Under the pieces are notes generated by a model, which saw only the letters and a list, made by a program, of their open reading frames with translations, was not told the DNA's origin and made no database searches. Positions 32,606 to 55,993 of a DNA stretch of 64,000 nucleotides are shown in pieces; within the stretch, counting starts at the first letter, position 1, and every line of letters begins with the position of its first letter. The stretch lies in NCBI GenBank assembly GCA_040767195.1, contig JAXGPA010000006.1, forward strand, positions 64,001 through 128,000, written 5' to 3'. The translations under genes and the position numbers were made by a program. This DNA comes from Syntrophales bacterium (GTDB lineage Bacteria > Desulfobacterota > Syntrophia > Syntrophales > UBA6807).

Positions 32606-33040
32606 CTATTCCGGTTTTTTGGGTTCTTTCGGGGGGCTCACGACGGCGATCCCGTCCATGACCATGGTGCCGTCCTGGTTTAAACACGACGTTCTCAGCC
32701 GGAGACGGTTTTTTTTGTCGTCCTTCTCGATGATCTCCACCCGGGCGGTCAGGGTGTCCCCGATCTTCACGGGGGCGATGAAGTCCACCTCCTGCCTCAG
32801 GTAGATCGTTCCCGGGCCGGGCAGGCTCGTTCCCAGGATGGTGGAGAACATGCCCGCCGAAAGCATGCCGTGGCAGATCCTCGTTTTCACGAAGGTGGTC
32901 TTGGCGTAGGATTCGTTGATGTGGATGGGATTCATGTCCCCCGTGATTCCCGCGTAAAGATACACGTCCGACTCGGAAATGGTTTTACCGAACTCGGCGG
33001 TGTCGCCGATGTTCAACTGAGCTATTGTCTTGCCGATCAT
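32606..33040 (-). CDS. phaJ: MaoC-family (R)-specific enoyl-CoA hydratase, PhaJ-like
   Basis: GDMNPIH hydratase-2 motif, RICHGML, LPGPG; last gene of the PHA cluster. Confidence 0.8.
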   Translation of the reverse strand: MIGKTIAQLNIGDTAEFGKTISESDVYLYAGITGDMNPIHINESYAKTTFVKTRICHGMLSAGMFSTILGTSLPGPGTIYLRQEVDFIAPVKIGDTLTARVEIIEKDDKKNRLRLRTSCLNQDGTMVMDGIAVVSPPKEPKKPE

Positions 33041-33070
33041 TTCAGTCCCCCTCCTTTCGCTGGCCGTTTT

Positions 33071-34117
33071 TCAGAACCAGGTCTTGAAGATCCAGTAATT
33101 CTCCCGGAGATCCTGGATGTCGCTTTCCAGCCGGGAGTATAGCTTCACGTTCCGTATGGCGATCCCGCCGAAAAGGGCCAGGGCGCAGGCGAACTGGACT
33201 TCCTCCTCGGTGAACTCGCGGGGTACGGCACTGTAAAGGCGGAGGACGCCGATCACCTCTTCCTTCGACATGATGGGAACGGAGAGGATGGAGGCGATCC
33301 CTTCCCGGGTCTTTTCCTGCCGGTACTGGACGCCGGGATCCCGGGAGGCGTCCCGGACTGTGACGGGCCGGCCCTTGAGCGCCTCGGCGATGCTTTTTTC
33401 CGCCGACACGGGCCCTTTCTTGAGATATTCATCGGAGAGGCCGTGGCTCGCGGCCAGGCGCAGCGTCGTCCTGTCCTCGTCGAGGAGGCGGATGGAGGCG
33501 GCCTTGACGTCGAGGGCCCGGGACACGTCCTGCGTCAGGGTTTCCAGGATTTTTTCGAGATCCAGGCTCGACGCCATCCCGGCGGCGAGATCGTAGAAGA
33601 GTCTCGTCCTCTCCCGGATGTCGTCGACGAGACGGATGTTTTCGATGGCCATGCCCCCCTGCTCCGCCAGGATCGAGAGAAAATCGATCTCGCCTCTCGT
33701 GAAATCCCTCGGTTCCGCGGTGTATAGGGAAAGAACGCCGATCGCGTTTCCGCCCACCATGACGGGCACCACGAGAATGGTGGCGATACCCTCGGCCCGC
33801 TTGGCTTCCCGGTTCTCGAGCCGGGGATCGGAGAGGGCGTCCCGGAAGTGGAGATACCCCTTTTCCAGCAACGAGGCGTTGATCTCCCGGGCCTTTTGCG
33901 TGCTCGTGTGCATGTAGTCCGGGGACAGGCCCGTCTGGGCCCTGGCCACGTAGGTGTCCTTCTCCTCGTCGTACAGGAAAAGGCAGGCCGCCTTCGCCTC
34001 CATGGTTTCCACGGCGCTTTGCGTGATGACTTCAAGGAGGCGATCCTTGCCGCCCGTCAATGCGAAGGCCCGGCTGATCCGTCCGATCGCCTGAATCTTG
34101 TTCATTTTCTTTGCCAT
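33071..34117 (-). CDS. Tandem GAF-domain protein without output domain
   Basis: Two repeats ending (I/L).VP....IGVL.LY...PR.FT..E..F. Confidence 0.85.
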   Translation of the reverse strand: MAKKMNKIQAIGRISRAFALTGGKDRLLEVITQSAVETMEAKAACLFLYDEEKDTYVARAQTGLSPDYMHTSTQKAREINASLLEKGYLHFRDALSDPRLENREAKRAEGIATILVVPVMVGGNAIGVLSLYTAEPRDFTRGEIDFLSILAEQGGMAIENIRLVDDIRERTRLFYDLAAGMASSLDLEKILETLTQDVSRALDVKAASIRLLDEDRTTLRLAASHGLSDEYLKKGPVSAEKSIAEALKGRPVTVRDASRDPGVQYRQEKTREGIASILSVPIMSKEEVIGVLRLYSAVPREFTEEEVQFACALALFGGIAIRNVKLYSRLESDIQDLRENYWIFKTWF

Positions 34118-34140
34118 TCTTCGGGGAAACCTCCTTTACA

Positions 34141-35598
34141 TCAGGGTTTCTTCGCTCTTTTCGCCGGGGTCTTCCCCCTGGCCCTCGCTTTCGCTTCCGG
34201 GGCCTTTGGCGGGGCCGGAATCGATTCGGCGGGCGGGACCGACTCAGAGGGCCTCACCGCAACGGCAACATCCTCCTCCTTCTTCCCGGCGTCTGCCGGC
34301 GATTCCTTTACGGGTTCCGGCTCGGGCGCCATCGGGGCGACACGTTTCGCCTTCCTCCCGGTCTTTGCCCCCGGCTCCTTTGCAGATGCCGGCTCCGGCG
34401 CCGCCGCGGCGGCGCTTTTCTTTCCGCTGCCTGTCCGGGCCCGAGGCTTTTTCGCGCGGGCCGGTTTCGGTGCCGGCTCCCCGGCCTTCTCCTCGCCATC
34501 CCGCTCCCTGAGCCACCGGATGATCTTGGGGCCGAATTCCTTCTGGGTCTTGGAGCTGACATAGATCCCGATGTGCCCCGTGTCGAGGCACAGGTCCTCC
34601 TTGTCGGTGCTCCCGACCATGGACGTCGTCTTGTCGCAGGCCTCCGGCGGGACCAGGTGGTCGTACCGGGCGTAGATGTTGAGGATCGGCATGGTGATGT
34701 TTTTGAGATCCACCTTTTTCCCGCCCAGGACATACTCGTTCTTGATGAGGAGGTTCTTGAGGTACATGGCGTCGATGAACTCCCGGAAGGTCTCCCCGGG
34801 AAGGTCGGGGCTGTCGAAGATCCATTTCTCCATGCGGAGGAAGTTCTCGACGAAATCCCGGTTGTTCACGTTCTCGACAAAACCGACATACTTGTCGATG
34901 ATGAGCCGGGCGGGGTTGAGGAGAAGAAAGCCCAGGTTCATGAAATCGCCCGGGACGTTTCCGTAGGCATCCACGAGCTCGTCGGGGCTGATGGACCGGG
35001 CCCACACGTTGAGGAGGCTCTGCTCGGTGTCGAAATTCACCGGGGTCACCGTGGTGACGAGGTTTTTCACTTTTTCCGGGTGCTGGGCCGTGTACATGAC
35101 GCAGAAGGTCCCGCCCATGCAGATCCCCATGAGGTGGAGATGGGACACGCCGTGTTTTTTCAGGACGAAGTCGACCATGTCGTTCATGTAGCCGTTGATG
35201 TGGTCGTCCAGGGTCAGGTACCGGTCCTTCCGCGTGGCGTACCCCCAGTCGATCATGTATATTTCCAGGCCCGCCTGGAGAAAGGTCTCCACGACGCTCC
35301 GCCCCGGCTGGAGATCGAGCATGGTTTCCCGGTTCACCTGGGCATAGACGATGAAGAGGGGGAAATTGTAGCGCACTTCCTCCGGCCGGTAGTGCTTCAG
35401 CTGGACCCGGTCGTCCTCGTAGACGACCTCGTAGGGAGTCTTGGCGATGTCCGTCTTCAAGGGGCTGAGAAGGACTTCCCGGGCCTCCCTCATCCGCTCG
35501 GCCATCTTGATCGGTTCAACGGCCATCCTGGAAGCGAGAAGGTCCATGGTCATGCCCATCGGGCTGCTTTTGCGACCGGCCGTTTTATCGTTTTTCAT
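34141..35598 (-). CDS. phaC: Class III PHA synthase subunit PhaC with Ala/Pro/Lys-rich C-terminal tail
   Basis: LDLQPGRS, YMIDWG, GICMGG lipase box, MEKWIFDSPD, DHLVPP, TGHIG. Confidence 0.93.
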   Translation of the reverse strand: MKNDKTAGRKSSPMGMTMDLLASRMAVEPIKMAERMREAREVLLSPLKTDIAKTPYEVVYEDDRVQLKHYRPEEVRYNFPLFIVYAQVNRETMLDLQPGRSVVETFLQAGLEIYMIDWGYATRKDRYLTLDDHINGYMNDMVDFVLKKHGVSHLHLMGICMGGTFCVMYTAQHPEKVKNLVTTVTPVNFDTEQSLLNVWARSISPDELVDAYGNVPGDFMNLGFLLLNPARLIIDKYVGFVENVNNRDFVENFLRMEKWIFDSPDLPGETFREFIDAMYLKNLLIKNEYVLGGKKVDLKNITMPILNIYARYDHLVPPEACDKTTSMVGSTDKEDLCLDTGHIGIYVSSKTQKEFGPKIIRWLRERDGEEKAGEPAPKPARAKKPRARTGSGKKSAAAAAPEPASAKEPGAKTGRKAKRVAPMAPEPEPVKESPADAGKKEEDVAVAVRPSESVPPAESIPAPPKAPEAKARARGKTPAKRAKKP

Positions 35599-36496
35599 GA
35601 CCCCTTTCCCTCCTTTCGAGCGCTGTCAACCGCTTCTTGATCCTGTAGAGATCCTTGTACACCTCGTCCATTTCCCGGTTTGTCGGGATGGGAAGATCCT
35701 GGAGGAGGTCGATGAGAAACTGCTGCCGGACCTTCCGGTACTCGTAGAGGGCCTTCAGGGTCTCCCGGAGCGTGTCGATGTAATCGGGCGACCGGAGCAT
35801 GTCCAGGTATCTCTTTTCGAGTTTCCCGATCCAGGTCCGGTACCAGGCCCGGGGATCCTCGAGAATTTCCGCTTTCTTCCCCTCGCCGGAGAGCATTTCC
35901 TCCTCCATCATGAGGACCGACTCTTCGATGGGGGCATAGAAAAGGTGGGCGAAATCCATGAGCCGGCCCCGGAAGGCCTGGAAACGGTCGACGGTCAGGT
36001 TGAGGCGCTCCTGGTAATAGCGCATCAGGCCGAGCTGGGGCAGGTTGAGGTATTTCCGCATTTCCTCCTCGTAGGAGCCGAACCAGGCCCGGGATACCTT
36101 CCGGAAGAATTCAGAAATGTCCTCGAAGCTCTTTTTTCGCTCCTCCGACGCGGGCGGCGAAAAGGAGGCCAGCTGGTTCCACAGGGGTTCCATGATCTTC
36201 AGGGCCATTTCGGGAATAGCCCCCGACGGGGCGTCACCCGAACCCTGAAGGCTCCGGAAATAGGCCTGCCAGAACTGGTCGAAGGCCGCCCGGGGGTCTT
36301 CGCCGGCTCCCGGCTTCTTCCGGTCCGCCGTTCCCGCTTCACTGTCGGCCCCGGGAAAGCCCTGCCCCTCGGCGGCGGTCTTCATGACCCCGAACCACAG
36401 GTTGGCCGTCGATTCCCAGAAGTCGAGAGAGGCCCTCGTCAAGGACTCCAGGGGTTCGTTTTCCCCGCGGCCTCGTTCACGATCCTTTTCCGTCAT
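35585..36496 (-). CDS. phaE: Class III PHA synthase subunit PhaE
   Basis: LPQLGLMRYYQE, C-terminal LPIPTNREMDEVYKDLYRIKK; overlaps phaC start. Confidence 0.85.
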   Translation of the reverse strand: MTEKDRERGRGENEPLESLTRASLDFWESTANLWFGVMKTAAEGQGFPGADSEAGTADRKKPGAGEDPRAAFDQFWQAYFRSLQGSGDAPSGAIPEMALKIMEPLWNQLASFSPPASEERKKSFEDISEFFRKVSRAWFGSYEEEMRKYLNLPQLGLMRYYQERLNLTVDRFQAFRGRLMDFAHLFYAPIEESVLMMEEEMLSGEGKKAEILEDPRAWYRTWIGKLEKRYLDMLRSPDYIDTLRETLKALYEYRKVRQQFLIDLLQDLPIPTNREMDEVYKDLYRIKKRLTALERRERGHEKR

Positions 36497-37029
36497 GATT
36501 TTTTCCCCCTTCCCTCTTTCTTTTTCGTTTCCCCGCTTTTTTCACGCCTGTCCCGCGAGGCGCTCTCGAAGGCGGCGACATAGGATTTCATCAGTTCCTG
36601 GAACTGTTCCGTCTGGCGCGTCATGAGATCCTGAACGCCCTGGACGACCTCGTCCCGGGAGGCGTTTTCCCACCCCGCTTCCCCGCGGAGGCGTCCGATG
36701 ACCGCCTCCTGCTCCGCCACCTTTTCCTTCAGCCGCGCGCATTCCTCGGCGAGCTTCCGGTACTCCTCCCGGGGAACCATCCCCATGAGGTTCATGTATT
36801 CCTCGTAGGATTTCCGGAAATTCCGCAGGGCCTCTTCCCAGGCGTCACCGCCCCCTTCTTCCGGGGCCGGTTTCTCCTTGAGACCGTAAATTCCGGCGAG
36901 AAGATTCCCGAACTCCTGGAAGCCCTGGAACCCCTGCTCAATCCACCGGTTGAAGTCTTCCACCCGCCGCTGTCCTTTCGCGGCGGACAGGAGGACATTC
37001 CCCCAGAACTCGAGAAACCTGCTGTCCAT
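36493..37029 (-). CDS. Hypothetical coiled-coil protein in the PHA operon
   Basis: MDSRFLEFWGN..., GMVPREEY + coiled coil; GAGGTG RBS; 4-nt overlap with phaE. Confidence 0.75.
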   Translation of the reverse strand: MDSRFLEFWGNVLLSAAKGQRRVEDFNRWIEQGFQGFQEFGNLLAGIYGLKEKPAPEEGGGDAWEEALRNFRKSYEEYMNLMGMVPREEYRKLAEECARLKEKVAEQEAVIGRLRGEAGWENASRDEVVQGVQDLMTRQTEQFQELMKSYVAAFESASRDRREKSGETKKKEGRGKKS

Positions 37030-37043
37030 GCCGGTCACCTCTT

Positions 37044-38648
37044 TCAAGCCGCTTTCCTCGGGGTTGGCCTGCCCTTCCCGGCCGGGCCCGCCGCCTCGAG
37101 ATCGAGGTGGAACCGGACGGGACCCCGGTATCCTTCTTTCCCGAAAACGGTGTGAAGGGCGCATTCCGAGGTGGGATTGGACCAGGATGTGGCGATGGCG
37201 CCGTGCCCCCGCGGGAAAACGGTCACCTCGACGTCGATGTACTTCCGCGGCGCCAGGGCGGCCTCGGGGTTAACCAGGTCGTCCTTGGCGGCGTAACACA
37301 GGAGCCACGGGATGTTCCTCTCCGGGATTCCCTTGAAATTCAGCGTTTTTCCGAAAAGCTTGACCGGAAGCGTCCCGTCCGGGGTAACGGGAACCGTGTA
37401 GGAGTCGAAACTGAGCTGGGTGATGCCCCTGGGCAGGTCGTTCCTCTCGTACATGAGCCAGTGATTCAGGGCCGCGGCGGTTTTGCTGACCTTCACTTCG
37501 CTGTCGTCGGGCCGGTCGAACATCATGAGATCCCGGTAAAAGGTGTGAATGGGGGATTCCTTGTCCATGCTCTTCAGCTTGTACACCCAGCTCATGACCT
37601 TGCCGTCCACGACCTCCCCGACGCCGGGGAGGGCCTTGAGGGCATACCCCAGGTCCCGGAAGCGCAGGGGAATGTGCTCGAGATACTCGACCAGGGACTG
37701 GCTTTCCGTTCCGTCCATGGGGGCGACGCAGGTGACGAGGGCGTCCACGAGGCCGTCGAGCTCACCGGAAAGAATGTCCAGGACGGCCATGAATCCGCCC
37801 TGGCAGAAACCGTTCAGGGTGACCGGCCGGCCGTGCCTTTTCATGACCGTTTCACAGAAAAGCCGGGTGTCCCGGGCGTCGTCTTCGCCTGTCATGACCG
37901 CGAGGGCGGGCGTCACAGCCACATCCTTCATGATCCGGATGTAGGTGGGAGTACCCTGGTTGGCGAAGGCATGGGTGTAGCTTTTCCCTTCCCCGGGCAG
38001 AAAAGCGAGGATGTTCGCCCCGAGCACGTACGGGGGGATGATAACCACGGGCTTGCCGTCTTCCCGTGACGTGACGGCGGGGTCCGTGGGAAACACCCGG
38101 TAGAGAATGAACCGGTCCGTTTCCGCCACCCGCTCGTAGCCGCCGTTTTCGAAATGAAACCCGAACTCGGAGGCGATGTTCCGGATCTCGCGGCTGTAAT
38201 TGTACACCAGTTCCTCGAAGATCTTTGCCTTTCTTTCCGAGTAGGCCAGGATATCCGGGCCTTCCGTCCCGGTGCAGGTGTTAAGCAGCGCCGTGAAAGC
38301 TCTCGCCCATTCCCTGGCATGGTATTCGTTGACGGAACGGATGGTGCTTAAAAGCCCTGTTTTGGCGATCTGGAGGTTGAAATAAAAAAGCTCAAGATAG
38401 TCACGGGCCGTGTCTTCCGGGGCATGATCGCCGATCTTGACCTTTTCCATGGCCTGAAAGGATTTCAGGGCCACCCAGAAAGGTTCCATGAAATCGAAGT
38501 AATACTGCCAGAGCCCGTTGATGCAGGTCTGAGATGCCTTGACCTGCTCGAATGCCGCAAGAACGGCCTTCCTGTTCAGGTCGGTCATCTTCTCCTGAAA
38601 CCGGAGAACCTCTTCCGCCACTTCCATGGGAACCATGCCCCTTTCCAT
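37044..38648 (-). CDS. PhaC-like alpha/beta-hydrolase-fold protein
   Basis: PVVIIPPY, GFCQGG nucleophile elbow, DDLV, GHGA (putative Cys-Asp-His triad). Confidence 0.75.
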   Translation of the reverse strand: MERGMVPMEVAEEVLRFQEKMTDLNRKAVLAAFEQVKASQTCINGLWQYYFDFMEPFWVALKSFQAMEKVKIGDHAPEDTARDYLELFYFNLQIAKTGLLSTIRSVNEYHAREWARAFTALLNTCTGTEGPDILAYSERKAKIFEELVYNYSREIRNIASEFGFHFENGGYERVAETDRFILYRVFPTDPAVTSREDGKPVVIIPPYVLGANILAFLPGEGKSYTHAFANQGTPTYIRIMKDVAVTPALAVMTGEDDARDTRLFCETVMKRHGRPVTLNGFCQGGFMAVLDILSGELDGLVDALVTCVAPMDGTESQSLVEYLEHIPLRFRDLGYALKALPGVGEVVDGKVMSWVYKLKSMDKESPIHTFYRDLMMFDRPDDSEVKVSKTAAALNHWLMYERNDLPRGITQLSFDSYTVPVTPDGTLPVKLFGKTLNFKGIPERNIPWLLCYAAKDDLVNPEAALAPRKYIDVEVTVFPRGHGAIATSWSNPTSECALHTVFGKEGYRGPVRFHLDLEAAGPAGKGRPTPRKAA

Positions 38649-38663
38649 ACGCCTTCCCTCTTC

Positions 38664-38927
38664 TTATCCTTCCTTGGGAAAGAAGGTCTCGACGCGCTTG
38701 AAGTTCTCATCCACCGTCTTCTTGAAGGCATCGAAGCCGGTCCGGTAGAGCTTCGACCACTCGGTGATGGCCTTTCTTCTCTCCGCGTCCCTGCCCGTCG
38801 CCTGGGTCAGGTACATGTCAATGACTTTCTCCATCTGCTCCTGGATCATGGTCATGGTGGAAAAAGCGCTGTCAAAAGTCGCCTTGTTCATGTCGATCAT
38901 CTGTTTGAGGGTTTTTCTCGAATCCAT
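38664..38927 (-). CDS. Phasin-like small protein
   Basis: 87-aa helical protein, paralog of 38961-39236 (QMIDMNKATFD, FKKTVDENF), next to phaR. Confidence 0.7.
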   Translation of the reverse strand: MDSRKTLKQMIDMNKATFDSAFSTMTMIQEQMEKVIDMYLTQATGRDAERRKAITEWSKLYRTGFDAFKKTVDENFKRVETFFPKEG

Positions 38928-38960
38928 TGTCGGTCTCCTTTCCTGAAACCTTTTCCTTTT

Positions 38961-39236
38961 CTACTTTTTTTCCTTTTCTTCCGTGGCGAAGTACCGGTCC
39001 AGCCGGGCGAAACTCTCGTCAACGGTCTTCTTGAAATCCTGGCTGCCCTTCTTGTAGGCGTTTACCCAGTCCCGGACCGCCTTTTTCCCTTCCTCGGGAA
39101 ATCCCGCGGCCTGGTCGAGGTACATGTCCATCATCCTCTGGGACTGCTCCTGAAGCATGGACAGGCCCTTGAACGAGTTCTCGAAGGTCGACCGGTAAAA
39201 ATCCAACGTCTGCTTGGCCATTTTCTTGGGATCCAT
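38961..39236 (-). CDS. Phasin-like small protein
   Basis: KQTLDFYRSTFENSF, FKKTVDESF; GGAGGTG RBS; paralog of the downstream gene. Confidence 0.7.
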   Translation of the reverse strand: MDPKKMAKQTLDFYRSTFENSFKGLSMLQEQSQRMMDMYLDQAAGFPEEGKKAVRDWVNAYKKGSQDFKKTVDESFARLDRYFATEEKEKK

Positions 39237-39506
39237 GTGAATCACCTCCATTTATTTTGTAAATCTGAACCTGAATATAAACCCCGTTTTGACCCTTGTC
39301 AAGATATTTTTTTTGCATTGCAACATTTTTTCTCCCGAGTCGCCGTGATTAAAATAAAATGAGTTATTAAAAGAAATTATTGTTGCAATATTTTTTCAAA
39401 TTGGTTACAAGTTTCAGAATTGATATTGCAATGAAGCAATAATGAGCGGGCGGTGTTGCCCCGGCGGGCATCGAGCCCCTTCGCTTGAGAAATCGGGGAG
39501 CAAAGG

Positions 39507-39992
39507 ATGGAAGAGACCCTGACCATAAAGAAGTACAGCAACCGCCGTCTTTACGACACGGAGGAAAACAGCTACGTGACCCTGGCCCGGGTGGCGGAGA
39601 GGATAAAGGACGGTCGGCGCGTGGAAGTCGTCGACGCCCGGACGGGGGAGGACGTCACCGCCGGCACCCTGACCCAGATTCTCGTCGAAGAGGCGAGGAA
39701 AAACAACGTGCTCCTGCCCGTCCCCGTCCTTCACCTGTGCATCCAGTTCGGAGACACCGTGCTCCAGGAATTTTTCGGGAAGTATCTTCAGCACGCCATT
39801 CGAGGCTATCTCGCCCACAAAGCCGCCGTGGACGAACAGTTCGGGCAGTGGCTCGAGTTCGGGAGCGAACTTGCCTCCCCGTCCGCGAAAACCGTCAACC
39901 CCCTGGAGGTTTACGCCCCCTTCCTGGATTTTCTGAAGGAAATGACATTTCCCGGGGCGGCCGATAAAAAGGAACAAAAAAATAAAAAGTAA
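39507..39992 (+). CDS. phaR: PHA synthesis regulator PhaR-like DNA-binding protein
   Basis: IKKYSNRRLYDTEENSYVTL, VDARTGEDVT...LTQIL. Confidence 0.88.
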   Translation: MEETLTIKKYSNRRLYDTEENSYVTLARVAERIKDGRRVEVVDARTGEDVTAGTLTQILVEEARKNNVLLPVPVLHLCIQFGDTVLQEFFGKYLQHAIRGYLAHKAAVDEQFGQWLEFGSELASPSAKTVNPLEVYAPFLDFLKEMTFPGAADKKEQKNKK

Positions 39993-40129: not shown

Positions 40130-40158
40130 TTGACAGATGAAAGAATTCGTCGTATTTT
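40130..40158 (+). promoter_or_regulatory. Sigma70-like promoter, peptide cassette 1
   Basis: TTGACA-N17-TATTTT. Confidence 0.6.
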
Positions 40159-40194
40159 TGAACGGATTCACAGGAAAACCGAAGGGGGGGAGCC

Positions 40195-40341
40195 ATGAAA
40201 AAAGATGAAAAGAAAGAAATGAAAAAGGCGACCTACGAGAAGCCCGTCCTGACAAAATTCAAGAAACTGACGGACGTGGTGGCAGGCGAATCGCCACAGA
40301 CAGGGCCGATATAGCCGGGTCTGGGTTGCACAAGATTTTAG
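40195..40341 (+). CDS. RiPP-like precursor A1 with in-frame TAG (39 aa if terminated, 48 aa if read through)
   Basis: MKKDEKKEMKKATYEKPVLTKFKKLTDVVAGESPQTGPI*PGLGCTRF*; GGGAG RBS; TAG at 40312-40314. Confidence 0.8.
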
Positions 40342-40351
40342 AGAGGGGGCC

Positions 40352-40480
40352 ATGAAGGAACACCGAAAAGAGAAAAAAGAGGAAAAGAAGGTCTACGAAA
40401 AACCCGCGCTGATCCGGCACGGTAAGCTGGGCGATATGACGGGAGGCCCTGTATACAACGGGTTTGAGGAGCTGGAGTGA
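40352..40480 (+). CDS. RiPP-like precursor B1 (42 aa)
   Basis: MKEHRKEKKEEKKVYEKPALIRHGKLGDMTGGPVYNGFEELE; full YxxPxLxxxGxxxxxT leader motif. Confidence 0.85.
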   Translation: MKEHRKEKKEEKKVYEKPALIRHGKLGDMTGGPVYNGFEELE

Positions 40481-40551
40481 ATTAAACGCGGCAACGGGTA
40501 CTTCCTTTGTCTTGACAGGTTTCGGCCTTTCTTTTCGGCTTCAAGGGGTAA

Positions 40552-40625
40552 GGGGTCGGACCAAGATAACCTGTTCATATGTCAGGATATACCTCCCCAA
40601 AAAGGCTGTTTTCAGGCCTTAGAAG
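40552..40625 (+). repeat. Partial copy of GGGGTCRGACCAAG-ended MITE-like element
   Basis: GGGGTCGGACCAAGATAA...GGATATA...AGGCCTTAGAAG, colinear with 16222-16295. Confidence 0.7.
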
Positions 40626-41439
40626 TGCCTTTTCATACCCGGAATCAAGCTTGTAAGACAAAAAGGGCTCCTGAACAGGCCTCTCCCTCCCCGCCAGGAA
40701 CCGAATCACTCTCACGGTCCCTCGATGCCCAGGCGCTTCCTGACGTTTTCTCGAAATTCCGGGCTGTCTGCCGAGACGCTCTCCAGCGGGAAGCCCTGCC
40801 TCTCAAAGCCGCCCCCGGGCGATGGTTCGAGATCGCTGCAGGGTTGCCATCCATTTCCGCCAAATCCAATGTATCCCCTTCCCCGAATGACCGACGACTC
40901 CGGCACGGACCATGTTCAGGTCAACATAAAGAAGGAACGCAATGGACGTCTGTGAAAAAATGAGTGAGATCGCACTTTACGCTCTGTCGACATGACCCGG
41001 TCAAGGGTGTGGTTCCCGTTGAGGACGCCGCCATCCGCTCTCCGGGACATCCGGCCGAGGCCTGCAGCAGCCTGACACAAATTCGCTTGCCATATCGCCT
41101 CCTCTGTGACATAAAAAAGTTATCAGGCTCCTTTGTGCAAACGTGTTCGACTCTTGCCGGTTCACGCTCACAAGTTCAGACGTCCCGCTCCGCCACCCGG
41201 GCCTACGCATCGATACCCGTATCTCGAAGATCCTGGGTTGATCCGAACCTGATTCGCCCTTTCATTTTGATTTCAACCACCCGTTTCCGTCTCCCCTGGC
41301 AGACGAACTCATGGGACCACAGGATTCCGGCACCGTGTGTTCTTTCTCCCGAAAAGCCTGTCCGTGGCGGTTTTGTCGTGTAACCTTCAACGGGCTGAAA
41401 CCCTGAGCGTTTCATGCCGAATGTGAAAGGAGGACGTCC

Positions 41440-43476
41440 ATGACCGTGAAAGAGGTGACGGAAACGTCGGAAGCTGAAATTGCCGTTCACTGGGGGGAAG
41501 AGGAGTTCTTTCATCCATCCGCCCGCTTCATCGCCCAGGCAAACATGACGGACCCGGACATCTTCGAGCGCTTCAGCCTGGAAAATTTCCCCAACTGCTT
41601 CAAGGAATACGCGGACCTTTTGACGTGGTACGAATACTGGCACACGACGCTGGACACGAGCGACGCGCCCTTTTTCAAGTGGTTCGTCGGCGGCCGGATC
41701 AATGCCAGTTACAACTGTATCGACAGGCACCTTGAAAAAAACAGGAACAAGACAGCCATTCACTTCGTACCGGAACCGGAAGACGAAAGAGTCGAGCACC
41801 TCACCTACCGGGAACTGTACGTGAGGGTCAACGAGTTCGCGGCAATCCTGAAGGACTTCTGCGGCCTGAAGGCGGGAGACATGGTCACCCTCCACATGCC
41901 CATGGTGGCCGAACTTCCCATTTCCATGCTGGCCTGCGCGCGGCTCGGCATCATTCACTCGCAGGTTTTCGGCGGCTTCAGCGGAAAGGCCTGTTCGGAC
42001 AGGATCATCGACTCGGGAAGCCGTGTCCTCATCACCATGGACGCCTATCACCGGGGCGGGCAGTTGCTCGACCACAAGGAAAAGGCGGACGTCGCCATCT
42101 CCGGGGCGGCCGCGGACAACCAGGAGGTGGACAAGGTTCTCGTCTGGCAGCGCTATCCCGGCAAATATTCGTCAAAGACCCCGATGGTGGAAGGGCGCGA
42201 CTTCTTTGTCAACGACCTGCTGAAGACGTATTACGGGGCCCGGGTTGACCCGGTGCCCATGCCGGCGGAAGCCCCCCTGTTCCTGATGTACACGAGCGGC
42301 ACCACGGGAAAGCCGAAAGGCGCCCAGCACAGCACGGGCGGGTACCTTGCCTACGTAACCGGAACATCCAAGTACATCCAGGACATTCACCCCGAGGATG
42401 TGTACTGGTGCCTGGCGGACATAGGGTGGATCACCGGCCACTCCTACATCGTTTACGGCCCCCTGGCGCTGTGCGCGTCCACGGTCATTTACGAAGGGGT
42501 CCCGACCTTCCCCGACGCCGGGAGGCCCTGGCGGATCGCCCAGGACCTGGACGTGAACATTTTTCACACCGCGCCAACCTCCATCCGCGCCTTGAGAAAG
42601 CTGGGCCCCGACGAACCGCAGAAATACAATTACCACTTCAAACACATGACCACCGTGGGTGAGCCCATCGAACCGGAGGTGTGGAAGTGGTACTACAACG
42701 TCGTCGGGAAGGGGGAAGCGGCCATCTGCGACACCTGGTGGCAGACGGAAAACGGCGGGTTTCTCTGCAGCACCCTGCCGGCGATTCAGCCCATGAAGCC
42801 CGGCAGCGCCGGCCCGGGGGTGCCGGGCATTCATCCCGTCGTGTTCGACGAAGACGGCAATGTCGTCCCCCCCGGCACGGGGAAGGCGGGAAACATCTGC
42901 ATACAGAACCCGTGGCCCGGCAGTTTCCAGACCATTTGGCGGGACCGGGACCGCTACGTCAGCCAGTATTACGAGAGATACTGCAAGGATCCGAAAAGCA
43001 AGAGATGGCAGGACTGGCCGTACATGACCGGTGACGCCGCCGTCACCGCCGCCGACGGATACGTCCGCATACTCGGGCGGATCGACGACGTAATCAATGT
43101 TTCAGGACACCGGCTCGGAACCAAGGAGATCGAGTCCGCGGCCCTGACCATCGGCGAGGTGGCGGAGGCGGCCGTGGTACCCGTGAAGCACGAACTGAAA
43201 GGGAAGGAACCGGATCTTTATGTTGCCTTGAGGCCTGGCTGCACGCCGAGCGACGATCTCGCCAAACGGGTCCAGGACGCCGTTGTAACGGAAATCGGGG
43301 CGATCGCGAGGCCGAGAAAGGTCTGGATCGTGCCCGACATGCCCAAGACGCGGTCCGGCAAGATCATGCGCCGCGTTCTCAACGCCATTTCCAACGACAC
43401 GGACGTGGGCGACGTCATGACCCTGGCGAATCCGGAAATCGTCGACGAAATAACCAGGATGGTCAGGAAAAAGTAG
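41440..43476 (+). CDS. acs: Acetate--CoA ligase (AMP-forming acetyl-CoA synthetase)
   Basis: YTSGTTGKPKG, ADIGWITGHSY, VGEPI, DTWWQTE, GRIDDVINVSGHR, PKTRSGKIMRR. Confidence 0.96.
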   Translation: MTVKEVTETSEAEIAVHWGEEEFFHPSARFIAQANMTDPDIFERFSLENFPNCFKEYADLLTWYEYWHTTLDTSDAPFFKWFVGGRINASYNCIDRHLEKNRNKTAIHFVPEPEDERVEHLTYRELYVRVNEFAAILKDFCGLKAGDMVTLHMPMVAELPISMLACARLGIIHSQVFGGFSGKACSDRIIDSGSRVLITMDAYHRGGQLLDHKEKADVAISGAAADNQEVDKVLVWQRYPGKYSSKTPMVEGRDFFVNDLLKTYYGARVDPVPMPAEAPLFLMYTSGTTGKPKGAQHSTGGYLAYVTGTSKYIQDIHPEDVYWCLADIGWITGHSYIVYGPLALCASTVIYEGVPTFPDAGRPWRIAQDLDVNIFHTAPTSIRALRKLGPDEPQKYNYHFKHMTTVGEPIEPEVWKWYYNVVGKGEAAICDTWWQTENGGFLCSTLPAIQPMKPGSAGPGVPGIHPVVFDEDGNVVPPGTGKAGNICIQNPWPGSFQTIWRDRDRYVSQYYERYCKDPKSKRWQDWPYMTGDAAVTAADGYVRILGRIDDVINVSGHRLGTKEIESAALTIGEVAEAAVVPVKHELKGKEPDLYVALRPGCTPSDDLAKRVQDAVVTEIGAIARPRKVWIVPDMPKTRSGKIMRRVLNAISNDTDVGDVMTLANPEIVDEITRMVRKK

Positions 43477-43590
43477 GGAAAACACCGACCCATGTTAAAG
43501 AGTGAGAAGGAGGTGATGCAGGAAGGGAAAGCGGAATGAAGGGCCGAAAAGGGCATCCAGGGTGAACGACAAAGAAGAAAGGAGGGTCAT

Positions 43591-44016
43591 GTGATGAATC
43601 TGATCGTCGAACGAGTGGATGTTTGGGCAGCCGCAATCAGGGACGAACCAGGCGGCCTGGCAAAGATACTCTCCGGACTGAAGGATGCCGGCGCGGACCT
43701 CGATTTCATCATTGCCAGGCGGGCGCTGGAACAACCCGGCAAGGGGGTTGTGTTCGTCACCCCGCTCCGGGGCGACGCCGAGGTCCGGGCCGCCTCAACC
43801 TTGGGCTTCAACGTGACGAGCAGCCTCAAGTCGCTCCGCGTGGAGGGAGACAACAAACCGGGAGTCGCCGCGGTACTGACGGAAAAACTTGCGGCGGCGG
43901 GAATCAACCTTCATGGCTTCTCGGCGGCCGTCATCGGGGCGCGGTTCATCATTTACATCAGTTTCGACAGTAGCGAAGACGCCGCGAGCGCGGAAGCAAT
44001 CCTGAAAAAGGGGTAG
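43591..44016 (+). CDS. Tandem ACT-domain protein
   Basis: DEPGGLAKIL..L..AG and DNKPGVAA.LT..LAAAGINL; AGGAGG RBS. Confidence 0.85.
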   Translation: MMNLIVERVDVWAAAIRDEPGGLAKILSGLKDAGADLDFIIARRALEQPGKGVVFVTPLRGDAEVRAASTLGFNVTSSLKSLRVEGDNKPGVAAVLTEKLAAAGINLHGFSAAVIGARFIIYISFDSSEDAASAEAILKKG

Positions 44017-44363
44017 ATCGAACCCGGAAACGACGGAAAGCGAAAGCAATGCGCCTGTGACTGTGTCCGACCGACGGCGGATGGCCGGGAAGGACGAAGC
44101 GCCGGCGGGTCCCTGGATTTCAGAGACCCGTCCGCCGCCGGTCAGATCACGACGGAATCATGTGACATCCATCGTGATGGACAGGTGGGACCCTTACGTT
44201 GCGGCCTCCAGGGCCTGTATTCCTGAAGCCGGTAATCAGCGGCGCCTCCTCGGCAAGTCCCGGAATGAACGATCTCATCCGGTTAAAGGTTTCAAACCCA
44301 GGAATTGGGGGAAAATAAAACCCGGCAGGGACATAACGTTTTGTTATTTCGTTTTAATATTTT

Positions 44364-44391
44364 TTGACAGGCACGAAATTATCTATAATCT
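44364..44391 (+). promoter_or_regulatory. Sigma70-like promoter, peptide cassette 2
   Basis: TTGACA followed by TATAAT (N14) or TAATCT (N16). Confidence 0.5.
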
Positions 44392-44425
44392 TATGACATA
44401 TCCTATTCACCATTAAGGAGGGGCC

Positions 44426-44554
44426 ATGAAGAAAGAAGAAAAGAAGGAACGGAAAAAGGCTCCCTATGAAAAGCCCGTCCTGACGAAATTCGGGAAGCTG
44501 GCGGACGTGACGGCGGGGGTATCGGAAGGGGCACTCGGCTGCACGAGATTGTAA
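44426..44554 (+). CDS. RiPP-like precursor A2 (42 aa)
   Basis: MKKEEKKERKKAPYEKPVLTKFGKLADVTAGVSEGALGCTRL; TAAGGAGG RBS. Confidence 0.85.
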   Translation: MKKEEKKERKKAPYEKPVLTKFGKLADVTAGVSEGALGCTRL

Positions 44555-44564
44555 GGAGGGGATT

Positions 44565-44693
44565 ATGAAAGAATACCGGGAAGAGAAAAAAGAAAAAGAA
44601 GAGAAGAAAGTCTACCAGAAACCGGTTCTCACCTTTCGCGGGAACCTGAAGGATGCCGCGGCCGGGCCGCCGAACGGATCAAACTTCAAATAA
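44565..44693 (+). CDS. RiPP-like precursor B2 (42 aa)
   Basis: MKEYREEKKEKEEKKVYQKPVLTFRGNLKDAAAGPPNGSNFK; TAAGGAGG RBS overlapping the A2 stop. Confidence 0.83.
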   Translation: MKEYREEKKEKEEKKVYQKPVLTFRGNLKDAAAGPPNGSNFK

Positions 44694-44715
44694 TCCTGCC
44701 GTGGAATCGAACTCC

Positions 44716-44746
44716 AGGCCGTCCTTCGGGGCGGCCTTTTTATTTT
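44716..44746 (+). terminator. Rho-independent terminator, cassette 2
   Basis: AGGCCGTCC-TTCG-GGGCGGCCT + T tract. Confidence 0.85.
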
Positions 44747-44864
44747 CCGGCCCTGACATTCCAGGGTGCCCTGCGATCAACGATCTTCCCCGGGTCCGGG
44801 CCTCCTTTTGCCTCGGCCGGGATGAAATCATATAAGGACAAGGTTATAAAAATTCTGATAAGAC

Positions 44865-44893
44865 TTGACACATTTCATAATTTTTCTTACTGT
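44865..44893 (+). promoter_or_regulatory. Sigma70-like promoter, peptide cassette 3
   Basis: TTGACA-N17-TACTGT. Confidence 0.6.
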
Positions 44894-44928
44894 CTTTCTG
44901 ATTCCATCTTCAGCCTGAAGGGGGGAGT

Positions 44929-45066
44929 ATGAAGAAAAAAGAAAATCGAGAGATCAAAAAGGCCAGGTACGAAAAGCCCGTCCTGACGAAATTCAATAAA
45001 TTGAAGGACGTGATGGCGCAGGGACACACTGGGCCTGAAACTCCGCTGGGCTGCACAAGATTTTAG
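44929..45066 (+). CDS. RiPP-like precursor A3 (45 aa)
   Basis: MKKKENREIKKARYEKPVLTKFNKLKDVMAQGHTGPETPLGCTRF. Confidence 0.85.
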   Translation: MKKKENREIKKARYEKPVLTKFNKLKDVMAQGHTGPETPLGCTRF

Positions 45067-45076
45067 GGAGGAGACA

Positions 45077-45196
45077 ATGATAGGAAAACCTGAAGAGAGA
45101 AAAATGGAAAAGAAGGCCTATGAGAAGCCCGAACTGAAGCGGTACGGGAAGCTGACGGACGTGATGGCGGAGCTTGTCACGTTGAAGCCTAAATAA
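45077..45196 (+). CDS. RiPP-like precursor B3 (39 aa)
   Basis: MIGKPEERKMEKKAYEKPELKRYGKLTDVMAELVTLKPK; GGAGG RBS. Confidence 0.8.
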   Translation: MIGKPEERKMEKKAYEKPELKRYGKLTDVMAELVTLKPK

Positions 45197-45213
45197 GACC
45201 GGAAATAAAAATC

Positions 45214-45245
45214 AGGCCGTCCTTCGAGGCGGCCTTTATATTTTT
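45214..45245 (+). terminator. Rho-independent terminator, cassette 3
   Basis: AGGCCGTCC-TTCG-AGGCGGCCT + T-rich tract. Confidence 0.8.
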
Positions 45246-45328
45246 CCTTCCAGCCGCTCCAGGAAGGCCGAAAAGCAACGACCTTTCCCGGGGAGGAGGC
45301 AGGACGGGTCTAAATGTTACGAAGACCC

Positions 45329-45357
45329 TTGACTGACAGGAAGTTTTTTCCTATTTT
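45329..45357 (+). promoter_or_regulatory. Sigma70-like promoter, peptide cassette 4
   Basis: TTGACT-N17-TATTTT. Confidence 0.5.
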
Positions 45358-45392
45358 TTTGAATTTCTTACATTCCGTGAGGGGTGGAAGCC

Positions 45393-45524
45393 ATGAAGGA
45401 AAAACATGAAGAGAAGAAAGTTGAGAAGAAGATCTACGAGAAGCCGGATCTGAAGCGGCATGGGAAGCTGACCGACATGGTGGCGGGCGGTATAAGCCCG
45501 AATGGTAGTAATGACATCGATTAG
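45393..45524 (+). CDS. RiPP-like precursor B4 (43 aa)
   Basis: MKEKHEEKKVEKKIYEKPDLKRHGKLTDMVAGGISPNGSNDID. Confidence 0.83.
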   Translation: MKEKHEEKKVEKKIYEKPDLKRHGKLTDMVAGGISPNGSNDID

Positions 45525-45574
45525 GGATAACAGTTTAAAGGGATTTTCCGAGTGAAAATTTAATGGCTGAAACT

Positions 45575-45605
45575 GGGCCGTCTTTCGGGGCGGCCTTTTT
45601 TGTTT
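45575..45605 (+). terminator. Rho-independent terminator, cassette 4
   Basis: GGGCCGTCT-TTCG-GGGCGGCCT + T tract. Confidence 0.85.
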
Positions 45606-45676: not shown

Positions 45677-45753
<77 letters not shown>

Positions 45754-53980: not shown

Positions 53981-55993
53981 TCAGCCGCCGATGAGGCATT
54001 TCCGGATCTTGTCCCAATCCCTCTTTTTCACCCACTCGTATTTTTCGTTGAAAAGCATGTCAGCGTTGTAGAATTTGCCCGACTTCACGCGGCCGGCAAA
54101 CTTTTTCACCTGGGAGGGACCGCCGTTGTAAACGGCGTAAACCATCCGGGCAACGAGGTCGTCATCGAGAGCGATCTCCTTTTCGATCCTGTCCAGCCGG
54201 TTCAGAATGTACTTGAAAAGATACAGCTCCAGGATCCGGCAGCCCGCCATGGCGTTGTACGTGATGTCCCAGCGCAGCCGGTTGCCCTCGTAAAGGCCCC
54301 GCCAGACCCGCTCGTTCACCTGCATGATCCCCACGGACGTTCCGTTGTAGGACCGGAGGTACCGGATCTTTCCCTTTTTCTCCCGAAACTGCCGAAAACA
54401 GCTCTCCTGCCATGCCGCCGCAAGAACGATGTCATGGTAGAGATCATTGTAATCCTTCGGGATCCGGCTTTCCTTCAGGGCCCCGTCGGCCTGTTCCAGA
54501 AGGAGGCCTCGCACCCGCTTCATGTATGCGTCGAGATTGGAACGGTCGACGACCCATTTCCGGATGGAAGGGTCCGCCGGCGGGGATTCCTCGGCTTCCC
54601 CCGCCCAGGCCCGGGAAAAGATCCAGTTCGCCGCCCAGGCGGCGGACCATCTCCTCAGGGCGTCCCCCGGTCCGCCGTCCACATCCCCGGCCTCCCCGCC
54701 TTCCGGGACCTCCCCCTCCTTCCCGTCTTCCGGAGCCTCCCCTTCCTCCGTTTCACCGGTGTCCCATTCCTCTCCCTCGAAAGCGGGCCCGGGAAAGTCC
54801 GGCGCCCGGCCCAGGCCCAGAACCCTTCTCAGCTTTGCGCTCACCCCGTAATCATAGGGGAGGAGTGGCTCCTTCTCGTCCGTCAGGAGCCCCATGAGGC
54901 GGATCCAGCCGTTCCGGCTGATCTCGATCCCCAGGGTGGGGCCGATCCGGTCGATCGTTTCCAGGGCGTCGGAGGCCGTGAAAAAAGCCAGGAACCGGAA
55001 GAGGTTCCGTGACGGCTCGTCGCCCAGGTGGCGGCGGAAGACGGGCGACAGGCTTTTCCAGGCGGTGATGAACTCCTCCCGGACGAAATCACCCCGGTCA
55101 CTCTCCTCCGACAGGGCATCGACAAACCGGTAACGGGCGTCCAGGAGGGTCGTCAGGAGAATCTCCCGGTCTTCTTCCGTCAGGGGCTGCCGTGACAGGG
55201 TCATGAGGATGGAGATGAGGTAGGTGTCCCACACCTCCCAGGAGTTAATAAACCTGTTCAGGGTTTCATCGGAAAGCTCTTCTTTTTCCTCCGTTTTTAC
55301 GAGAGGGCCTTCCGCCGATTCCTCCAGCTCCGCCAGGACCTGCAGGCGGATCCCCCCCCCGTCTCCGTCGACGGTGAATGACCCCGGCCGAAGGCTTTCG
55401 AACATTTTCCGAGCCCTTTCCCGGGAGTCTTCCCGGAAAAGGGGAAGAAGGGTGTCTTTCACGTCCGCCACCGGCGGTCCCAGGTCTACCGTGATGGTCT
55501 TCAGAAATTCGTGGACCCTGGGCTTGACGAAATCCCAGACGAGGCCGGCCACCGTGGCCGGTTCCCGGTCCACCGTGAGAACGGTGGAATCTTCCGTTTC
55601 GAAGAAGAGGGTCCACGTGCCCGGAAGGATGACGGGCCGCTGGAAGAGAACGACGATGCCCTCCCACGTCACGGGAAGCAGGCAGTCGCCGCCGACGGGG
55701 GTCCCCAGGCGGACGGACACCCGCGTTTCGAACCGGATCCGGCCTTCTTCTCCGCCGTAGAGGGGCCGGGACAGGGTGATGTTCCGGCAGCCTTCACACT
55801 CGTCCAGGATCACCACCGATTCATCCACACCCCGAAAAGTCGTGTAGACCACCATGGACCGGAGAAGAGAAAAATCGATGGTCATGGGAAAGACGACGCT
55901 TTTCGCCTCCCCGAGCGCGGGGGAACACAGAAAGGCCAGCCAGAGGAACAGGATCCCTGTGCGTGCTCTCCCGAAAACGGGTGTTTTTTTCAT
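53981..55993 (-). CDS. Secreted protein with C-terminal lytic transglycosylase (SLT-like) domain
   Basis: Signal peptide; AAWQES, GIMQVN, YNGG motifs; acidic linker. Confidence 0.78.
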   Translation of the reverse strand: MKKTPVFGRARTGILFLWLAFLCSPALGEAKSVVFPMTIDFSLLRSMVVYTTFRGVDESVVILDECEGCRNITLSRPLYGGEEGRIRFETRVSVRLGTPVGGDCLLPVTWEGIVVLFQRPVILPGTWTLFFETEDSTVLTVDREPATVAGLVWDFVKPRVHEFLKTITVDLGPPVADVKDTLLPLFREDSRERARKMFESLRPGSFTVDGDGGGIRLQVLAELEESAEGPLVKTEEKEELSDETLNRFINSWEVWDTYLISILMTLSRQPLTEEDREILLTTLLDARYRFVDALSEESDRGDFVREEFITAWKSLSPVFRRHLGDEPSRNLFRFLAFFTASDALETIDRIGPTLGIEISRNGWIRLMGLLTDEKEPLLPYDYGVSAKLRRVLGLGRAPDFPGPAFEGEEWDTGETEEGEAPEDGKEGEVPEGGEAGDVDGGPGDALRRWSAAWAANWIFSRAWAGEAEESPPADPSIRKWVVDRSNLDAYMKRVRGLLLEQADGALKESRIPKDYNDLYHDIVLAAAWQESCFRQFREKKGKIRYLRSYNGTSVGIMQVNERVWRGLYEGNRLRWDITYNAMAGCRILELYLFKYILNRLDRIEKEIALDDDLVARMVYAVYNGGPSQVKKFAGRVKSGKFYNADMLFNEKYEWVKKRDWDKIRKCLIGG

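Follow-up and report, generated by a model that had tools for sequence, protein, structure and literature searches.

Seven small genes on one contig of a Syntrophales bacterium raise the question of what they encode and how their two classes relate: do class A and class B combine in one product, or are they separate substrates of one pathway? The genes lie at 40195-45524 of the window analyzed here, a 64,000-nucleotide stretch of contig JAXGPA010000006.1 (GCA_040767195.1; contig positions 64,001 to 128,000, forward strand). We denote the source genome (2.39 Mb, 98.8% complete) G000 and its contigs C1 to C10; numbers preceded by G, L, and P denote relatives, loci, and public proteins, respectively. 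With a probability of roughly two in three, we conclude that these genes belong to a ten-gene library of precursors of RiPPs (peptides synthesized on ribosomes and modified after translation) matured in trans by a single cyclase-free operon on C8, in which the ending LGCT[R/K] marks the subset cross-linked by a radical S-adenosylmethionine (SAM) enzyme.

None of the 69 window open reading frames (ORFs) scanned encodes a RiPP enzyme. The genome has a single gene for a PqqD-like RiPP recognition element (RRE) and a single Transglut_core3 (B2) gene, and these are adjacent on C8 in an operon (C8:228645-232688) that encodes, in order, the RRE, the B2-like peptidase, a radical SAM/SPASM enzyme, an HprK-like kinase, and a PF14907 transferase. 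All five genes are whole in G000, and the operon converges on a DUF362 gene and a B12 radical SAM gene. The solved structures nearest to the RRE are lasso and linear polyphosphorylated peptide (LPP) RREs (5v1u, 9x90, 9x8z, and 6jx3). The kinase has H170, K191, D208, and D209, a spacing equal to that of the H148-K169-D186-D187 motif that passages of the Bsf paper give for BsfK (PMC10368454); for neither kinase nor transferase did sequence comparison find a solved relative. The peptidase retains its Cys and His motifs and scores over the Pfam cut-off. The radical SAM enzyme has the CxxxCxxC motif and invariant SPASM cysteines at 239, 246, 257, 296, 299, 305, 308, and 327. It passes the cut-off of no characterized family (the best models are NirJ2, MftC, and AhbD), and its best solved relative, SkfB, aligns over the core only (E 9e-18). 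In G001, G023, G245, G341, G461, L212, L213-L215, and several genomes of family f15, precursor genes adjoin this gene set or fall within it; in G245 and G461 they occupy the stretch that separates the kinase/transferase side from the B12 gene, a stretch that is empty in G000. Because the precursors of relatives adjoin the same gene set, the C8 enzymes likely serve the window genes. The PF14907 transferase of L209 (6306-7552; strain 96% identical) matches in two reading frames, which may reflect a frameshift or an error in assembly.

The ten precursors of G000 share one leader type and carry variable cores of 5-15 residues. Taking the core as the residues after a cut 17 residues past the leader Tyr, following Bsf, we compared 75 precursors from 17 genomes or loci, with cores of 4-32 residues (4-21 as a rule). 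Ser occurs in 69 of the 75, where chance at 6-10% Ser would give 32-45, and Ser or Thr occurs in 74, the sole exception being the window gene B1. The first Ser is at core position 2-6 in 62/75, most frequently at position 4 and then 3. This bias is of the kind expected with the Ser3 kinases LppK and BsfK but does not share their strict position, and the frequency of GS in cores fits a Ser acceptor context. At NCBI, some members are annotated as “lasso RiPP family leader peptide-containing protein” or “putative RiPP precursor,” homologues bear Deltaproteobacteria names, and the genomes and loci with the system derive from digesters, sludge, and sediment.

One alternative is that the products are true lasso peptides, cyclized in trans by an asparagine-synthetase-like protein of the genome. 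A2 passes the lasso leader model NF033521 (23.9 bits; cut-off, 19), the RRE and B2 are lasso-type, and two Asn_synthase proteins are encoded elsewhere in the genome (C6 and C1). However, these proteins reach 136 bits at best against a cyclase cut-off of 525, and the lasso cyclase model NF033535 has no match over cut-off in any of five genomes (G000, G001, G023, G339, and G340); G023, which is 100% complete, lacks any match to it. No asparagine-synthetase-like gene is present in any operon locus examined, that of G461 included. The cores are also mostly too short and lack Asp/Glu at 7-9 plus a tail; the full ring pattern (Gly/Ser/Cys/Ala1, Asp/Glu 7-9, and a threading tail) fits 1 of 75 cores and none of the 7 in the window. 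We therefore regard lasso formation as extremely improbable. A separate locus, L271 (G606), combines an RRE-kinase-asparagine-synthetase arrangement with a ring-compatible precursor and a similar leader and is likely a true phosphorylated lasso cluster.

The second part of our conclusion concerns the tail. A profile of 15 class A peptides matched 177 representatives at E 0.001, and among the matches listed, 40 of 150 representatives end in [L/F]GCx[R/K]; this conservation is partly by construction because the A3 profile itself includes the motif. Among 37 tails parsed, Thr follows the Cys in 34 and Arg or Lys is present in 37, with a variable C-terminus. Orthologues of the radical SAM enzyme share 44-62% identity. 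The tail was present in all five lineages with both an orthologue and visible precursors (G000, G245, G341 with L213-L215, L212, and G339) and in 1/12 genomes for which the search gave no orthologue. Fisher's test gives p 0.001, or 0.048 once f15 is collapsed into a single row; both values overstate the association, since the rows are related to one another and consist mostly of draft genomes. The f15 precursors were sampled from retrieved loci only. The count leaves out L209, L210, L211, and L216 (no precursor on the contig), G270 (70% complete, with the enzyme and no precursor found), and distant radical SAM matches at 35-39% identity, which accompany other Cys-rich precursor types. Of 62 loci from the pattern scan of genome contigs, 53 did not match in frame and were dropped; the 9 in-frame loci include two unrelated ORFs (L084 and L138) and duplicates of L062 (L108/L109). 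The metagenome scan with the radical SAM protein gave 19 loci, from which 8 orthologues were examined and 11 distant matches were dropped.

Gene neighborhoods agree with this co-occurrence. The SPASM enzyme is adjacent to a Cys-bearing precursor in L062, L177, L212, and L213-L215, and G001, a member of the same genus that is 100% complete, has the operon minus the radical SAM gene together with three precursors without Cys; it has lost both the enzyme and the tails. We conclude from the co-occurrence that the tail likely marks the subset cross-linked by the radical SAM/SPASM enzyme of the operon. Our best guess for the product, by analogy with SPASM precedent in passages of PMC10114670, is a thioether from the Cys to a neighbor within L-G-C-T-R/K; Cys oxidation or a C-C link may occur instead.

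Besides the limits already attached to the tail counts, several observations weigh against this overall reading. Ser3 is present in just 2/7 window cores (A1 and A2), in 5/10 cores of the genome, and in 16/75 overall (Ser4, 25/75), and B1 offers neither Ser nor Thr as an acceptor, whereas passages of the cited studies describe LppK as accepting neither Thr3 nor Tyr3 (PMC13381572) and BsfK as strict for position 3 (PMC10368454). Enrichment is weaker in the wider representative set (Ser in 110/139 cores), and Thr-2 is found in just 2/7 window leaders. The B2 peptidase scores 30.4 against the cut-off of 33 for NF033537. No exporter is encoded among the C8 operon genes or their direct neighbors, the rest of the genome not having been searched. 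Some tails deviate from the motif (LGCTLF in L213, LGCTIF in P0002, and LCCTRF in L175). Finally, G340 carries two LGCTKLF genes, yet at E 1e-30 it shows no orthologue of the radical SAM enzyme; a cognate B2 or close kinase was not seen there either, and thus the operon may be unassembled or the link between tail and enzyme may not be strict.

Such cases bear on the possibility that the cyclase-free pathway is shared and the tail is not a SPASM substrate at all, serving instead in a disulfide dimer, in metal binding, or as a target of the DUF362 or B12 radical SAM proteins, with the co-occurrence reflecting lineage history. The tails of G340 without an orthologue would fit, as would the small number of independent lineages behind the p value of 0.048, and a single Cys per peptide also suits a disulfide dimer. 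However, the DUF362 and B12 genes do not track the tail, being found also in G461, G023, and other f15 loci, which lack tails; enzyme and tails disappeared together in G001; and the tails are not a single-lineage marker because they occur on several leader lineages. On balance we consider this explanation unlikely. Returning to the reading of the tail as a substrate mark, we tentatively put forward a stronger form of it, itself rather doubtful: L-G-C-T-R/K might be a portable C-terminal tag that routes hypervariable phosphopeptides to a SPASM enzyme making an undescribed small Cys-based ring (for example, from Cys to the Arg/Lys two residues on), with gain or loss of the tag switching products between linear and cross-linked forms, in A1 by one stop codon. 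Such peptides would add a new branch to the radical-SAM RiPPs, in anaerobes of the Deltaproteobacteria type.

How, then, do A and B relate? The sequence-only reading saw the order A1-B1, A2-B2, A3-B3, and B4, which our gene calls reproduce, and proposed a two-peptide product or two substrates of one pathway. The latter is supported by the one RRE, the one B2 peptidase in the genome, and the one leader type. The class descriptions also stand: YEKPVLTKF.KL.DV is found in all three A leaders, and Y.KP.L...G.L without Cys is found in all four B genes, with the A2 leader matching the B pattern as well. In homologous loci examined, the pairing is not consistently kept and unpaired homologues occur, the very outcome that the sequence-only reading had named as a refutation; a two-peptide product is thus not supported. 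Context is available for 14 tail-class genes, counting A1: a Cys-free gene comes directly after 7 of them (3 in G000, including A1, and 2 each in G245 and G340) and precedes 3 (G341, L212, and L213); the other 4, all in G339, are solitary, with contig continuing for 1.7-4.1 kb behind them. No A accompanies the Cys-free genes of G001, G461, and nine f15 genomes.

In a tree of 38 leader fragments, the window A leaders cluster with two Cys-free G001 genes (support, 93), the tails are dispersed over several lineages, and the window B leaders form no supported clade; G001 combines A-type leaders with Cys-free cores. From these gene contexts and the leader tree it follows that the pair is not obligate and that the class mark is the tail rather than the leader. 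The leader was rejected as a class mark, tails occurring on several leader lineages. We likewise set aside NG and PNGSN (e.g., as an N-x-S sequon): three of four B genes carry NG (B1, B2, and B4) and two carry PNGSN (B2 and B4), as had been read, and the B cores of other genomes do not conserve them.

An obligate two-part product, either like a two-peptide bacteriocin or a cross-linked heterodimer, with selection keeping the pairing, would account for the Cys-free gene directly after A in 7/14 cases across three genomes, for the A-B junction kept by strain variants with different cores, and for the single predicted promoter of each pair. It sits poorly with the four lone A genes, the reversed order at three loci, B4 and the C9 gene standing alone, and the 11 genomes without A, and no B core sequence is conserved between genomes. 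To our knowledge, two-peptide bacteriocins are also far longer than these 5-15-residue cores. Such a product is very unlikely; the A-B pair was duplicated as a unit in the source lineage, yet it is not obligate.

The conserved LGCTR(F/L) ending that the sequence-only reading gave to class A does not hold for A1. The A1 gene (40195..40314; 39 residues; core, GESPQTGPI with Ser3) is closed by an in-frame TAG at 40312-40314, after which the coding sequence for PGLGCTRF (40315..40341) remains in frame and untranslated under table 11, one synonymous change from A3 over LGCTRF. The TAG shows no differing letter in contigs of four studies (X1 record 3, X3 record 15, X4 record 20, and X8 record 25), which rules out a sequencing error, and the public set includes an open A1-like allele (P0052). 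We read the TAG as a real, probably recent nonsense change; since the four contigs represent near-identical strains, a recent stop explains the intact tail.

The same in-frame, nearly unchanged tail and the identity of the allele across four studies could be taken to mean that the TAG is read through, by pyrrolysine insertion or suppression, yielding a full class A peptide with a nonstandard residue. However, the genome has no PylS match over cut-off and no tRNA-Pyl at default ARAGORN stringency, and we accordingly rejected pyrrolysine recoding; relaxed ARAGORN returned two CUA matches amid many evident false positives, one of them within the kinase gene. TAG is an ordinary stop here, closing 101/662 long ORFs as well as A3, B4, and acs, and tail-free genes with A leaders are known in G001, all of which makes read-through scarcely credible.

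The A1 stop could alternatively be the first sign that the array consists of decaying, largely silent duplicates kept only through recent duplication. B1 without Ser/Thr, the separation of precursors from the operon, and the possible transferase frame change in the close strains of L209 would be consistent with decay. All seven genes nevertheless have a purine-rich ribosome-binding site and the leader motif, predicted promoters and terminators are intact, the operon genes are whole, tail changes between strains are mostly synonymous, and the family is conserved across orders. We thus judge decay of the array to be very improbable.

We infer the chemistry of the pathway products as a whole from the biochemistry of the Bsf, Pade, and Lpp systems. 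By that precedent, the RRE would bind YxKPxL at -17 to -12, the kinase would phosphorylate Ser/Thr near core position 3-4, the transferase would add a nucleotidyl or sugar group onto the phosphate, and B2 would cut off the leader to release short linear phosphopeptides with no lasso knot. From the co-occurrence, class A would additionally receive a small ring, most probably a thioether that links its invariant Cys to an adjoining residue of L-G-C-T-R/K. A and B would then be two product types of one pathway, not halves of one product, and one stop codon, as in A1, would be enough to convert a class A peptide into a substrate of B type. As to biological role, the products might conceivably form a strain-specific repertoire for signaling or competition.

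The closest known system is LPP (lppA-K-B-S-D-N) of Bacillota, reported by Popov et al. in 2026 (PMC13381572). In the parts of that paper describing the cluster, the shared features are a YxxP leader, a discrete RRE, a kinase resembling HprK, a nucleoside triphosphate transferase that is uncharacterized, the lack of a macrolactam cyclase, and a conserved leader before a variable core with Ser near the core start. The differences are equally plain: the peptidase here is lasso B2-type rather than SpI/SipW (the single genome match to the SpI/SipW-like PF10502 is on C1, unlinked to the operon), the LPP cluster has an MsbA-like exporter where the C8 operon and its direct neighbors have none (the rest of the genome not having been searched), cores here are as a rule 4-21 residues against 45 in an Lpp example, and up to ten precursors are dispersed here against one to three in LPP. 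The system described here also has the radical SAM/SPASM, DUF362, and B12 radical SAM genes and the Cys-tail class and belongs to another phylum; the main text of the LPP paper carries no mention of radical SAM or Desulfobacterota. The system works like LPP but falls outside LPP on peptidase and exporter.

Phosphorylated lasso clusters, namely, Bsf of Bradymonas (PMC10368454), paeninodin, and pseudomycoidin (PMC9266682), share, according to passages of these papers, the split B1/B2, the kinase His-Lys-Asp-Asp at equal spacing, the nucleotidyltransferase, YxxPxL at -17 to -12, tolerance of Ile/Val at -2, and, in Bsf, the Ser3 acceptor. They differ in that the genes here include no cyclase, no ring-forming core, and no ABC (ATP-binding cassette) exporter beside the enzymes, and they include a radical SAM/SPASM enzyme and many precursors. 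As for lasso membership, the YxxPxL leader, discrete RRE, and B2 peptidase are thus present, and the cyclase and ring core are absent. SynChlorMet (TIGR04248-04251) and GeoRSP (TIGR04302-04303) of anaerobes likewise combine a stand-alone PqqD with radical SAM/SPASM and, as ScmC, an HprK-like protein. The C8 proteins nevertheless score far below the cut-offs (ScmD, 36/100; ScmE, 103/400; ScmC, 26.5/125; GeoRSP radical SAM, 110/400), and here there is one SPASM enzyme, with B2 and PF14907 present. Separate SynChlorMet-like loci in which an RRE, a radical SAM enzyme of 35-39% identity, a Cys-rich precursor, and a kinase occur together (L143-L148 and L240-L244) have precursors that often end in GS. 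With sactipeptides, ranthipeptides, and other SPASM RiPPs, as portrayed in passages of PMC10114670, the enzyme shares the intact CxxxCxxC, eight or more auxiliary cysteines, and an invariant substrate Cys; the differences are that it exceeds the cut-off of no characterized family and that its cross-link is predicted.

Neither the cluster type nor the LGCT[R/K] motif was found in the literature searched, which left most subscription papers and supplements outside. The cluster type is not described in passages of PMC7470986, PMC13622209, and 10.1101/2021.04.07.438883, and at the level of search terms PMC12710340 and PMC10288494 contain no relevant mention; these clusters could be listed in supplements to the papers on LPP, RRE-Finder, and the radical SAM compendium. 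The peptides apparently belong to a branch, so far undescribed, of a family that entered the literature in 2026. Cyclase-free maturation as such is already known from LPP (2026); what is added here is the link between tail and enzyme.

The layout of the array is as follows. A predicted promoter of the TTGAC(A/T) type noted by the sequence-only reading, defined here as TTGAC[A/T]-N16-18-TAnnnT, recurs 62-65 nucleotides upstream of A1, A2, A3, and B4 and is missing before B1-B3, against a background of 75/1974 AT-rich 130-nucleotide windows; a stricter scan picks up just two of the four. In unit 1, the putative promoter TTGACA-N17-TATTTT (40130..40158) lies 65 nucleotides upstream of A1, which is followed by B1 (40352..40480; 42 residues; core, GPVYNGFEELE; identical to public protein P0111). 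Unit 2 comprises the predicted promoter TTGACA-N16-TAATCT (44364..44391, with TATAAT at spacer 14), A2 (44426..44554; 42 residues; core, GVSEGALGCTRL, with Ser3 and Thr-2), B2 (44565..44693; 42 residues; core, GPPNGSNFK), and a terminator-like hairpin with T run (44716..44746; -17.3 kcal/mol). Unit 3 has the predicted promoter TTGACA-N17-TACTGT (44865..44893), both hexamers of which also lie upstream of the L062 array, followed by A3 (44929..45066; 45 residues; core, QGHTGPETPLGCTRF; close homologues P0002 and P0003), B3 (45077..45196; 39 residues; core, ELVTLKPK), and a terminator-like hairpin with a T-rich run (45214..45244). Unit 4 consists of the predicted promoter TTGACT-N17-TATTTT (45329..45357), B4 without an A partner (45393..45524; 43 residues; core, GGISPNGSNDID), and a hairpin with T run (45575..45605). 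All of these features are on the + strand, and a tRNA-Pro(GGG) on the - strand (45677..45753), its 3' end toward the array, marks the boundary.

The A-B spacing is 10 nucleotides in all three pairs (measured for A1 from the second stop at 40341), and nearly identical hairpins follow units 2-4, unit 1 lacking the shared hairpin. Across the 2.39-Mb genome this hairpin has only 4 matches; besides those of units 2-4 there is one behind a precursor pair on C7. Given the common promoter site, the 10-nucleotide gap, and a hairpin limited to four genome sites, units 1-4 share one origin. Duplication of a whole unit, as had been proposed, fits the shared promoter position, the gap, the private terminators, and A leaders 72-80% alike, but the array is no plain tandem: the acetyl-CoA synthetase gene acs (41440-43476) and an ACT-domain gene (43591-44016), together 41440..44016 on the + strand, split unit 1 from unit 2. 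These two genes are passengers outside the peptide system; they are adjacent in G001 too, on a contig other than its precursor contigs. The three paralogues beyond the seven, absent from the earlier reading as is the C8 enzyme operon, are the C7 pair and one gene on C9. The C7 pair (G000:C7:254162-254803; L001) faces a tRNA-Asp; like the window array, it terminates where an opposite-strand tRNA has its 3' end, a typical islet position. An RNA run (X15) has contigs over 44975-45153, spanning the A3-B3 junction with no differences, and over 45124-45431, spanning terminator 3 and promoter 4; these show neither transcription, strand, nor level, and DNA may be in the sample.

Several other features were seen around the array and its relatives. 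An unexplained element of roughly 75-110 nucleotides at 40552-40660, seemingly like a repetitive extragenic palindrome (REP) or miniature inverted-repeat transposable element (MITE), has at least 5 more copies (72-79% identity) on C7 and C10 and one G001 match. A polyhydroxyalkanoate cluster (MaoC, PhaC, PhaE, phasin-like ORFs, and PhaR; 32606-39992) lies directly upstream of unit 1. Long ORFs at 13723-16170 and 53981-57540 (815, 670, and 516 residues) have no convincing family match, the last of the three carrying an N-terminal MerR helix-turn-helix. In an Rfam scan, only the tRNA passes. Default ARAGORN finds 39 tRNAs in G000, with Ser and Asn unrepresented, so the assembly's tRNA complement is incomplete. 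In six f15 loci (L064:11089-12159, L068, L070, L071, L074, and L180), a conserved 357-residue Cys-rich protein without a Pfam match, which we take to resemble U32-type Fe-S proteins, is encoded next to dispersed precursors and is a candidate extra tailoring enzyme. Further candidates in f15 arrays (L067:11080-12015, L071:8953-16306, L073:5389-6495, and L066:807-2612) include a formyltransferase, GNAT, ATP-grasp, glutamine cyclotransferase, Mur ligase, and a kinase-GT2 fusion.

If our reading is correct, an uncharacterized SPASM enzyme family gains a concrete, short, and conserved candidate substrate motif. The Cys-free B genes and truncated A1 are natural controls within one genome, and the relatives G001 and G461 are natural knock-outs; with these in hand, a single co-expression in Escherichia coli could reveal new cross-linking chemistry. 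The array is also a source of many very small candidate substrates for the PF14907 transferase; the Lpp and Psm studies left the activity of this transferase unresolved. More broadly, the system suggests that bacteria of anaerobic digesters and sediments keep diversified peptide repertoires.

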